Origin: Naegleria gruberi
Taxonomy: Eukaryota
Strand: one strand, 5' to 3'
Assembly (NCBI GenBank): GCA_000004985.1
Contig: GG739343.1
Length of the DNA stretch: 1,704 nucleotides
Position 1 is the first letter of the stretch, and every line of letters begins with the position of its first letter. Shown in pieces: positions 1 to 1,704 of this stretch. The position numbers were made by a program, and so were the translations under genes. The notes under the pieces were generated by a model, which saw only the letters and a list, made by a program, of their open reading frames with translations, made no database searches and was not told the DNA's origin.

Positions 1-2
1 CC

Positions 3-26
3 CATTTTTTTTGATTTTTTTGTAAA
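3..26. repeat. Copy A of a direct-repeat motif caT8gaT7gtaaa; the - strand reads TTTACAAAAAAATCAAAAAAAATG
   Basis: Identical to 1117..1139 apart from one extra T in the second T-run. On the - strand it ends in ATG (5..3) followed by GG at the window edge. Confidence 0.85.
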
Positions 27-50
27 TTAATGGATTCTAATTGGAAGGGT

Positions 51-245
51 TCATTGTAAATTGCATCCTGTGAGTGGATAAAACCCCATTCGATAATCCC
101 AATAATCAATACCATTGTCATCAGGTAGAGCAACACAACAAGTAGGTTCAAAACCTTGAAATGCTTCCATTAAAGTTCTTTTCACAATATTTTCACTTTC
201 AGGTTTGTGAAAATGAAAAAATCGTCCAAAGTGAAATATATCCAC
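51..245 (-). CDS. Downstream (C-terminal side) segment, +1 frame relative to 247..777; listed in the ORF track as a 64-aa GTG-initiated ORF
   Basis: The frame opens at 251 (after TAA 254..252), only 5 nt before the TAA (249..247) that ends the 247..777 frame. It reads (VN)VDIFHFGRFFHFHKPESENIVKRTLMEAFQGFEPTCCVALPDDNGIDYWDYRMGFYPLTGCNLQ and ends at TGA 53..51. If TGA is sense it continues (C)TLPIRIH to TAA 29..27. The first codon in the ORF track is GTG, not ATG, so an independent start is unlikely. Confidence 0.35.
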   Translation of the reverse strand: MDIFHFGRFFHFHKPESENIVKRTLMEAFQGFEPTCCVALPDDNGIDYWDYRMGFYPLTGCNLQ

Positions 246-246
246 A

Positions 247-777
247 TTAACTTATCCTTATAATAAGGTTTTTCAGTTTTTTTATCCAATCACTTATTTC
301 GTAAAATGAAAAGGAGTAAACTTCCAAATCATTCAGAATCTTGTGAAAAATTTGACAATCTGTCATTTCCTCAGTTCCAGGCCATTTGAAAGGTCTTACA
401 TGGTTAACATATGAGTGAATAGTTCTTGCAGCAAAATAATAAGAGAATTTGGCCATTTGATGAGGAGTTGGATCCAACTCATTGTTAAACTTGATTCGAA
501 CATCAATTAACTTGCAAGTTTCAGAAAAATTCTTCTCACATTTTTCTCCTTTAATTCTTGTTTGGAATAATTGTGAAAGTTCATTCACAAATCTTGATTT
601 CCCAACTCCTTCCTCGCCTTGAACAATCAGAACCGTTCCAGTATCTAAAGTTTTTAATATTTTCCAGATCACTATTGCTAAACGAAGTAAATAAATAATT
701 TTCAATCCAATTAAATGGTAAGGTGAATTGACTTTTGGATTTTTAAAGTTCTGGGAACACTTGTTTGATGATATCAT
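247..777 (-). CDS. P-loop NTPase segment (Walker A GEEGVGKS; STAND/NACHT-like or KAP-like); the central frame of a gene that is split over several frames
   Basis: ORF track gives 176 aa, ATG at 777..775, TAA at 249..247. A hydrophobic strand followed by a glycine-rich loop, TGTVLIVQGEEGVGKSRFVNELSQ, is a textbook Walker A (GxxxxGKS) context of the kind found in NACHT/STAND and KAP NTPases. I could not recognise a Walker B (hhhhDE) motif downstream. The protein-like reading continues in other frames upstream and downstream, so this ORF is probably not the whole gene. Confidence 0.6.
   Translation of the reverse strand: MISSNKCSQNFKNPKVNSPYHLIGLKIIYLLRLAIVIWKILKTLDTGTVLIVQGEEGVGKSRFVNELSQLFQTRIKGEKCEKNFSETCKLIDVRIKFNNELDPTPHQMAKFSYYFAARTIHSYVNHVRPFKWPGTEEMTDCQIFHKILNDLEVYSFSFYEISDWIKKLKNLIIRIS
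595..618 (-). other. Walker A / P-loop motif GEEGVGKS (codons ggc gag gaa gga gtt ggg aaa tca)
   Basis: Direct translation of the - strand, residues 54-61 of the 247..777 ORF. Confidence 0.8.
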
Positions 778-988
778 AAGTGTCTAATCTTTCATAAGCT
801 TCAAGAACAATATGAACAATCCTATTGACAAACTTTCCATCGACATCATATTGTTCCAAACCATCAATTTGATTGCCAAATTCCTTTCTTAATACGGAAA
901 TCAGATAGTTCCTATCCCACTCTGAATAATTCCAATAACAAAGATTGTTGACTATAGTCTGTAACTTCTTCTTTACATATTGGCTTAT
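746..988 (-). CDS. Upstream (N-terminal side) segment of the same NTPase gene, in the frame one step behind 247..777; no ATG in this frame
   Basis: The - strand frame with codon starts congruent to 1 mod 3 is open from after TGA (991..989) to TAA (745..743), 81 codons. It reads ISQYVKKKLQTIVNNLCYWNYSEWDRNYLISVLRKEFGNQIDGLEQYDVDGKFVNRIVHIVLEAYERLDTYDIIKQVFPEL. The composition is hydrophilic and protein-like. It overlaps the start of the 247..777 frame by 12 codons. It is absent from the ORF track because it lacks an ATG/GTG and its longest TTG-initiated piece is short. If TGA is a sense codon the frame stays open up to TAA at 1087..1085. Confidence 0.35.
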
Positions 989-1116
989 TCACCAGAAGAA
1001 AACATATCTGTAATTTACAATAACAAGTTTGAATCCTCTTCAATTAAAGTTTAATATGATTTTTGATATATTTGAAAAAAAATTTTAAGGTTTGGAAAAT
1101 TTGAATATTCTTGAGA

Positions 1117-1139
1117 CATTTTTTTTGATTTTTTGTAAA
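1117..1139. repeat. Copy B of the direct-repeat motif caT8gaT6gtaaa; the - strand reads TTTACAAAAAATCAAAAAAAATG
   Basis: It overlaps the left arm of the inverted repeat. On the - strand it ends in ATG 1119..1117, the mirrored actin start. Confidence 0.85.
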
Positions 1140-1158
1140 ACTGTTCATTGTTCCTCAG

Positions 1159-1179
1159 AAATTACAAAATTAAAAAAAA
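1159..1179 (+). promoter_or_regulatory. Start context aaATTACAAAATTAAAAAAAAA immediately 5' of the actin ATG; TTACAAAA at 1162..1169
   Basis: This is the third occurrence of TTACAAAA + T + A-run + ATG in the window. The other two are on the - strand at 1139..1117 and 26..3. That makes it a candidate core promoter or initiator element. No Shine-Dalgarno-like purine tract of the GGAGG type is present. Confidence 0.4.
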
Positions 1180-1704
1180 ATGTCTCAAGAATATTCAGCG
1201 ATCGTGTTTGATAATGGCTCTGGCTCCATTAAAGCAGGTTTTTCAGGATGTGAGAATCCACAAGTGGTTTTTCCATCACTCATTGCTTCTCCTTTAAAAT
1301 CCAAAGAATCTGAAAATATCAAAGAAATATACCTTGTGGGAGATGAAGCTAAAATTGACAGTAGAAAGAATGTTAGAATGGTCAGATATCCAATAGAACA
1401 TGGAGTAGTGACGAATTGGGAGGGGATGGAACAGATTTGGCGTCATGTTTTTAGTCAATTACAGGTGGATTGTGAAAATCATCCTGTTTTATTGACTCAA
1501 CCTCCTTGTAATCCAAAACAAAATAGAGAAAAGATGACTGAAATAATGTTCGAAACATTTAGAATACCATCCATGTATGTTTCTATTCCTGCTGTATTGT
1601 CCTTGTTTGCAACTGGGAGGACAACTGGAATAGTTTTAGATTCTGGAGATGGTGTGACGAATATTGTTCCAATTTTTGAATCACATGCTTTAGAATATGC
1701 TGTT
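1180..1704 (+). CDS. Actin-family protein (divergent actin or actin-related protein); 5' end complete, 3' end truncated by the window edge
   Basis: Seen in sequence: ATG at 1180..1182 is preceded by in-frame TAA at 1171..1173, so it is the first start. 175 codons stay open to the last base of the window. The translation [23 protein letters not shown]...[18 protein letters not shown]...[27 protein letters not shown]...[30 protein letters not shown] carries the canonical actin-fold motifs: phosphate-1 DNGSG (1210..1224), YPIEHG, NREKMTxIMFETF and phosphate-2 DSGDGV (1639..1653). Established knowledge: these blocks are diagnostic of actin/Arp. The region matching the actin DNase-I binding loop is replaced by [14 protein letters not shown]. 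Confidence 0.85.

Follow-up and report, generated by a model that had tools for sequence, protein, structure and literature searches.

The AT-rich initiators of Giardia reportedly give rise to bidirectional and partly sterile transcription (Teodorovic et al. 2007, NAR). For Naegleria, a survey of the accessible literature on core promoters, transcription start sites (TSSs), and bidirectional promoters found no described core promoter elements. Among the other described systems that come close to the present locus are mutational ones. Short template switches perfect nearby inverted repeats that are near-perfect to begin with, and create hairpins in a single step (PMC5453318; PMC8794818). In the coding genes of yeast, template switching homogenizes the non-identical arms of short inverted repeats, replacing up to five neighboring amino acids (PMC8604942).

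Here we analyze a stretch of 1,704 nucleotides (nts) from Naegleria gruberi (contig GG739343.1, assembly GCA_000004985.1), hereafter the window, which makes up an entire small scaffold of the draft genome and has a G+C content of 31.7%. In this window, the start codon of an actin gene lies inside a perfect palindrome and is mirrored on the opposite strand. The palindrome is real and highly nonrandom, and is best seen as a by-product of a compact bidirectional start architecture together with a local inverted copy beside a dead gene. By itself, it shows no regulatory mechanism. Two points are worth pursuing: the candidate motif near the gene starts and the possible rewriting of a start region by template switching.

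The inverted repeat around the actin start codon

The preliminary description had reported a perfect 25-bp inverted repeat around the actin start codon, and this repeat is real. Positions 1102–1126 (TGAATATTCTTGAGACATTTTTTTT) are the exact reverse complement of 1173–1197 (AAAAAAAATGTCTCAAGAATATTCA), with 25 of 25 nts matching across a 46-nt spacer (Table 1). The longest perfect inverted repeat found in 300 dinucleotide-preserving shuffles of the window, with spacers of up to 200 nts allowed, was 15 nts, as against the 25 observed. The right arm, described earlier as A8 plus 18 nts, does hold the actin ATG on the plus strand, but actually consists of A7, the ATG (1180–1182), and a further 15 nts. 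The ATG at 1119..1117 on the minus strand and that at 1180..1182 on the plus strand form a pair of divergent starts with 60 nts between them, in a geometry exactly symmetric about position 1149.5.

Inward, the resemblance fades gradually. A repeat finder extended the inverted repeat to 32 nts at 94% identity (1102–1133/1166–1197), and with one or two indels the likeness continues to the TTAC at 1138/1162. The arms differ only in this inner stretch, which is rich in homopolymers: one run is A6 in one arm and A4 in the other, a second is A7 or A8, and a single position has C or T. Most of these positions are prone to slippage. The outer ends are sharp, where AAAATT faces GATCGC in unrelated flanks.

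Table 1. Coordinates of features in and around the inverted repeat (window numbering)
Feature	Position	Strand	Remarks
Third start cassette (TTACAAAAAAATCAAAAAAA-ATG), heading a metallophosphoesterase-like gene	3..25	−	Runs off the left end; Metallophos
P-loop NTPase relic, frameshifted and stop-containing	51..862	−	Frame −1 holds Walker A (GEEGVGKS), frame −3 Walker B (MWIYFTLDD)
Dead-end 22-codon ORF MSQEYSNFPNLKIFFQIYQKSY, opened by the mirrored ATG 1119..1117	1051..1119	−	TAA 1053..1051
Perfect 25-bp inverted repeat, left arm	1102..1126	−	Reads A7-ATG-TCTCAAGAATATTCA; reverse complement of 1173–1197
Inner imperfect continuation, left arm	1127..1138	−	Reads TTACAAAAAATC (start-proximal motif), exactly as upstream of ATG 5..3
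Nonpalindromic 23-nt core between the head-to-head start cassettes	1139..1161	.	Loop of the predicted fold
Inner imperfect continuation, right arm	1162..1172	+	TTACAAAATTA, the actin copy of the start-proximal motif
Perfect 25-bp inverted repeat, right arm	1173..1197	+	A7 leader, actin ATG 1180–1182, codons 2–6 (SQEYS)
Divergent actin gene, 5′ part (175 codons), NAEGRDRAFT_77005 (protein XP_002668085.1)	1180..1704	+	Protein 100% identical; runs off the scaffold

As RNA, the region 1095–1204 is predicted to fold with −39.2 kcal/mol on the plus strand (z −8.8, none of 200 shuffles being as stable) and with −37.4 kcal/mol on the minus strand (z −8.2); as single-stranded DNA it folds with −28.8 kcal/mol. 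The predicted plus-strand stem includes the actin start codon. A search of the hairpin against Rfam found no family at the gathering threshold, the best scores being 35.5 against a required 94 and 35.3 against a required 100 (MIR1435, MIR2934, and others). These sub-threshold matches to plant MIR families reflect generic hairpin similarity only. A heat-shock element was also considered and rejected: the sequence TCTCA-AGAAT-ATTCA offers two perfect units and one imperfect unit where at least three alternating nGAAn units are required, and GAANNTTC occurs at chance level.

The actin gene

The plus-strand ORF matches the Pfam Actin family (PF00022) with 189.7 bits and an E-value of 8.6e−56, and its product is a genuine but divergent actin with an intact reading frame. 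Residues 1–175 align with residues 1–175 of 375-residue actins, giving the protein an N-terminus of canonical length. Its identity to conventional actins in the protein collection is about 57%. No orthologous actin locus was found, as matches in IMG/VR are 41–54% identical and those on JGI metagenome contigs reach 60% at best. The protein is recorded on a single contig among 15 billion proteins.

Several side observations concern this gene and its neighbors. Of the metagenomic relatives of the actin, the two that score highest (P0002 and P0003; L002 and L003) are canonical actins bearing internal tandem duplications of about 100 residues, which are probably assembly artifacts that inflate the scores. 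The three genes of the scaffold are all near-orphans, with no match to the actin above 60% identity, a single distant homolog of the NTPase, and, in a word-indexed search, no homolog of the phosphoesterase. A single-contig record of an actin is odd for a resequenced genome, and the placement of the scaffold in N. gruberi is worth verifying. An origin from a giant virus had been suggested by the tight spacing, the promoter-like motif, the actin, and the NTPase, and was rejected: protein scans of IMG/VR yielded only the distant actin matches given above, with no match to either the NTPase or the phosphoesterase, and the palindrome arm was absent from it. The 18-mer motif matches many unrelated viral contigs once each, an uninformative consequence of low complexity.

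The minus-strand partner

The mirrored ATG opens a 22-codon ORF that ends at the stop codon at 1053..1051, as the preliminary description had stated. Direct reading of the sequence revealed neither a GT nor a GC splice donor ahead of its TAA, so that this ORF cannot be exon 1 of anything. Further along the minus strand, a 176-codon ORF (247–777) carries the Walker A motif GEEGVGKS and matches no Pfam family at cutoff. An exhaustive HMMER search of 1.84 billion representative sequences returned a sole true homolog of the NTPase, the 830-residue hypothetical protein KAL9646466.1 of Willaertia magna (E-value 6.5e−6, 34% identity); the remaining matches came from a sister contig, on which the same sequence is split in two. 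KAL9646466.1 itself matches no Pfam family.

Aligned to the window by tblastn, KAL9646466.1 falls into colinear pieces in differing frames, −3/−1/−3. Residues 146–224 map to frame −3 across an in-frame stop, residues 254–374 to frame −1, and residues 384 onward again to frame −3, there including the Walker B-like MWIYFTLDD. Between the Walker A and Walker B motifs lies a frame shift of +2. Introns joining the frames were considered and rejected, as the flanking Trp codons are 44 nts apart compared to 42 nts in the homolog, the mark of a small indel, and the 22-codon ORF lacks a GT donor. Ciliate or other alternative genetic codes were likewise rejected for the minus-strand gene, as both the actin and the 176-residue ORF use CAA and CAG for Gln, and the TGA stops remain.

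The sister contig offers an independent view of the same sequence. This ENA metagenome contig (L001, positions 1–1264; ERZ929261, run ERR1078381) is 95.5% identical to window positions 885..1, which implies a close Naegleria relative in the sample of run ERR1078381. It keeps the frame breaks of the NTPase and adds indels of 8, 4, and 13 nts inside the supposed ORF. Searched against an index of 5.8 billion proteins, the NTPase and the phosphoesterase returned the sister contig alone, or no match. Judged from these alignments, the minus-strand “NTPase gene” is a pseudogene in decay, the remnant of a P-loop NTPase of lineage-restricted distribution.

The suggestion that the 22-codon ORF acts as an upstream ORF (uORF) in the NTPase leader does not survive these findings. 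The relic lies in frames −3/−1/−3 with an in-frame stop, the indels of the sister contig are not multiples of three, and a GT donor is missing; without an intact NTPase gene, the proposed uORF has no main ORF to act on. Viewed as a bidirectional gene pair, the locus has an intact partner in the actin, while on the minus strand it has a dead-end ORF followed by a pseudogene.

A motif shared by three gene starts

A third gene start lies at the left edge of the window. The repeat finder showed positions 3–20 to be identical to 1117–1134 (18 of 18 nts), and on the minus strand this segment reads AAAAAATCAAAAAAAATG, ending at the ATG at 5..3. The sister contig, which reaches 380 nts past the left end of the window, reveals that this ATG opens a real ORF of the form MGQAESS…GDIGDP…GNHEY. 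Its metallophosphoesterase-like character is indicated by a Pfam Metallophos score of 23.9 bits, against a cutoff of 21.5. The first residues of its product, MGQAES, resemble an N-myristoylation signal (MGxxxS).

With the ATGs in register, the sequences of the three starts are ttacaaaattaaaaaaaaATGtctcaagaatattca (actin), ttacaaaaaatcaaaaaaaATGtctcaagaatattca (mirror), and ttacaaaaaaatcaaaaaaaATGggacaagcagaatcg (phosphoesterase). They share the start-proximal motif TTACAAAA-T[CT]-A7–8-ATG, which is the inner half of each palindrome arm and which also precedes the third start at 5..3. The octamer TTACAAAA occurs exactly three times on both strands of the window, at 18–25 (minus), 1131–1138 (minus), and 1162–1169 (plus), and each of the three copies lies 18–20 nts upstream of an ATG on the same strand. 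The count of three compares to 0.36 expected and is reached in none of 200 shuffles, two of the copies being nonindependent as they lie within the inverted repeat. We propose TTACAAAA, followed by an A-run and the ATG, as a candidate initiator, core-promoter, or leader motif of Naegleria, in which the C-A step of TTACA would be a plausible initiator.

The mirror copy has the appearance of a mosaic. Upstream of its ATG it matches the phosphoesterase start, with one A in the run differing, and downstream its 15 nts match actin. Since it shares 18 nts with the region upstream of the metallophosphoesterase gene and 25 nts with the actin start, its upstream part is not a simple copy of the actin upstream region. 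The preliminary description had also entertained a DNA-level symmetry of the bidirectional-promoter type, and this idea fits the anatomy: the two ATGs are 60 nts apart, and each is preceded by TTACAAAA and an A-run, an arrangement also found before the third start.

Gene starts in Willaertia

A 22.6-kb locus of Willaertia magna (JBEGDK010000129.1; L206) with 13 complete annotated genes served for comparison. Among the 78 pairs of its gene starts, identity reached at most 12/18 upstream and 9/15 downstream of the ATG (means of 8 and 4.4), compared to 13–15/18 upstream and 15/15 downstream here. An A-rich context at −1..−8 is generic at the Willaertia starts. Annotated divergent ATG pairs are only 42 and 80 nts apart (L206 positions 9958/10001 and 6781/6862), such that the promoters or leaders of these pairs must be tiny or overlap the adjoining coding sequence. 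None of the 13 Willaertia gene starts is spanned by a perfect inverted repeat, the best inverted repeats within 200 nts being at most 15 nts at 93% identity, or of low complexity. Against this background, the 60-nt head-to-head layout and the A7-ATG are ordinary for the group, but agreement at all 15 positions that follow the ATG (15/15) is out of the ordinary.

A further observation from the same 22.6 kb concerns TTGACAAC, which occurs three times on both strands, at 14094–14101 (minus), 18026–18033 (plus), and 21598–21605 (plus). All copies lie 11–49 nts upstream of an annotated ATG on the same strand, a placement for which 1.7% of positions qualify. TTGACAAC is possibly a promoter element related to the TTACAA motif of Naegleria.

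Origin of the palindrome

The explanation we favor, to which we give an even chance, is that the palindrome consists of two head-to-head start cassettes overlaid by a local inverted copying event, and is not a translational switch. Each cassette would combine TTACAAAA, located some 18–20 nts upstream, with a leader rich in A, the ATG itself, and the five initial codons, and two copies would stand head to head. The inner part of each arm (TTAC…A-run…ATG) would be the promoter or leader motif of at least three gene starts on the scaffold. Two divergent copies of such a motif automatically produce a quasi-palindrome; only the 15 nts after the ATG call for a special explanation. These outer 15 nts, corresponding to codons 2–6, may have been made identical by local inverted copying along either of two routes. 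In one, template switching during replication would have extended or homogenized the quasi-palindrome already present; in the other, a short segment of about 36 nts would have been duplicated in inverted orientation, with later slippage in the A-runs. The replacement of up to five residues seen in yeast (PMC8604942) is on the same scale as codons 2–6 here. One cassette would head the working, divergent actin gene, and the other would now head only the dead-end ORF before the decayed NTPase pseudogene. If the motif is indeed a core promoter or leader, with TSSs near the ATG, mature mRNAs would not contain both arms.

Because the mirrored ORF cannot be spliced and stands before a pseudogene, a recent event is more economical than selection for mirror perfection. 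Both the mechanism and the direction of copying are inferred. The actin arm is the more likely source, given the canonical N-terminal length of the protein. In the opposite direction points, weakly, the NTPase homolog of Willaertia, which begins with MSDES, vaguely like MSQEYS. The minus-strand copy bears no unique changes in −15..+18 despite heading a pseudogene, which could reflect constraint.

Several other explanations compete with inverted copying between start cassettes. Control at the RNA level would require an actin or antisense transcript that begins beyond the far arm, whose 25-bp stem, extended to about 34 bp, hides the AUG until it is melted or cleaved. The stem proposed in the preliminary description to sequester the AUG is energetically possible, with the folds given above stable on both strands, but it demands that transcription start at least 78 nts before the ATG, within the relic of the NTPase. 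Such a start is disfavored by the motif found 18–20 nts before all three ATGs, which together with the 42–80-nt spacing of heterolobosean ATG pairs suggests very short leaders. Moreover, a perfect stem devoid of G-U pairs or bulges has the look of a recent copy, and the minus strand has no intact gene to regulate; we consider such control quite unlikely. The same TSS problem besets a hairpin RNA gene, in which a read-through transcript would become a Dicer substrate and yield small RNAs against the 5′ end of actin. The long perfect stem and its generic likeness to miRNA precursor models speak for this possibility, yet all Rfam matches fall well below gathering, leaving it highly improbable. 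A selected symmetry in the DNA would instead place one binding site in each arm of a symmetric bidirectional promoter, at the 8-bp palindrome GAATATTC (resembling the heat-shock consensus nGAAnnTTCn). Each site would lie just inside one gene and 64–78 nts upstream of the opposite ATG, so that the first codons of one gene double as an upstream element of its partner. The self-complementary GAATATTC is indeed present in both arms (1103–1110 and 1189–1196), and the left arm, although in noncoding relic DNA, is perfect in a layout exactly symmetric about 1149.5. However, the count of GAANNTTC shows no enrichment (3 copies where 1.38 are expected, with 30 of 200 shuffles reaching 3), the death of the partner gene leaves half of the symmetry without a beneficiary, and no comparable start-spanning repeat exists at the 13 Willaertia starts. 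To our knowledge, no factor binds this site. On balance, selected symmetry of this kind is unlikely. A long shot is the proposition that Naegleria uses a selected, symmetric bidirectional start cassette, in which codons 2–6 of each gene also serve the facing promoter as its upstream element or else, when transcription under some conditions initiates upstream, form a hairpin that gates actin translation or feeds RNAi.

Two further explanations treat the repeat as foreign or spurious. A miniature inverted-repeat element (MITE) would make 1102–1197 a 96-bp unit in which the terminal repeats provide the start of actin by chance. Long terminal inverted repeats around an AT-rich interior are what such an element would show, and plant MIR hairpin families, to which there are weak matches, are often MITE-derived; those Rfam scores are nevertheless far below gathering (35 vs. 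94–100). The flanks, …GGAAAATT on one side and GCGATCGT… on the other, contain no direct repeat that would betray a target-site duplication, and searches of the window, IMG/VR, and the fetched loci turned up no further copy. Excision would also remove the actin ATG together with codons 1–6, yet the N-terminus of the protein has canonical length. A MITE origin is therefore barely credible. Less far-fetched, though still very improbable, is an assembly or cloning artifact of a tiny scaffold built from low-coverage Sanger reads. The scaffold is just 1,704 nts long, its actin is found on one contig among 15 billion proteins, and the independent sister contig ends at window position 885, short of the repeat, such that 886–1704 lack a second contig. 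Conversely, the sister contig independently confirms the left 885 nts at 95.5%, and chimeras do not typically take the form of a 25-bp repeat around a unique interior of 46 nts within continuous sequence. The surroundings of both arms also make biological sense, with an intact actin start and a motif in common with a third gene.

If inverted copying between start cassettes is the right account, the locus would be a clean eukaryotic case of a short inverted copying event rewriting the region of a start codon, either giving a gene a new N-terminus or planting a promoter–ATG cassette on the opposite strand. It would bear on the nonselective origin of gene starts and of hairpins. Were a selected symmetry or hairpin true instead, the N-terminus of this actin would be dictated by the symmetry of a promoter or an RNA structure, not by protein function.

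Comparison with known systems

Like MITEs and other elements with terminal inverted repeats, the locus presents a short AT-rich unit with long inverted repeats at its ends. It differs from them in that it lacks a target-site duplication, searches yielded no other copies, and the arms hold a functional start codon and the motif of a gene start that lies outside the repeat. With 5′-leader hairpins and uORFs it shares an AUG that would lie in a stable stem if both arms were transcribed, along with a short ORF before an NTPase-like sequence; here, however, the main ORF on the minus strand is not intact, and cotranscription of both arms appears unlikely. The compact bidirectional promoters of head-to-head gene pairs in gene-dense protists likewise feature divergent starts tens of nts apart and A- or AT-rich elements near the ATG, and one of their directions may yield a sterile transcript alone. 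In contrast to these, the symmetry here extends 15 nts into the coding sequence, and one partner is a pseudogene. Finally, in comparison with template-switch or quasi-palindrome mutations, as framed in the Ripley model and the four-point model (PMC5453318) and as described for RNA hairpins (PMC8794818), the event here is inferred rather than reconstructed, and the repeat spans a start codon together with a promoter or leader, whereas those mutations lie in internal coding or intergenic sequence. In common with them, the locus shows a perfect inverse arm of some tens of bases within 100 nts of its likely source, sharp boundaries, and several adjoining codons affected, as in yeast (PMC8604942). 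Head-to-head copies of the motif of TTACAAAA, A-run, and ATG would have offered the near-palindromic substrate that such mutations start from.
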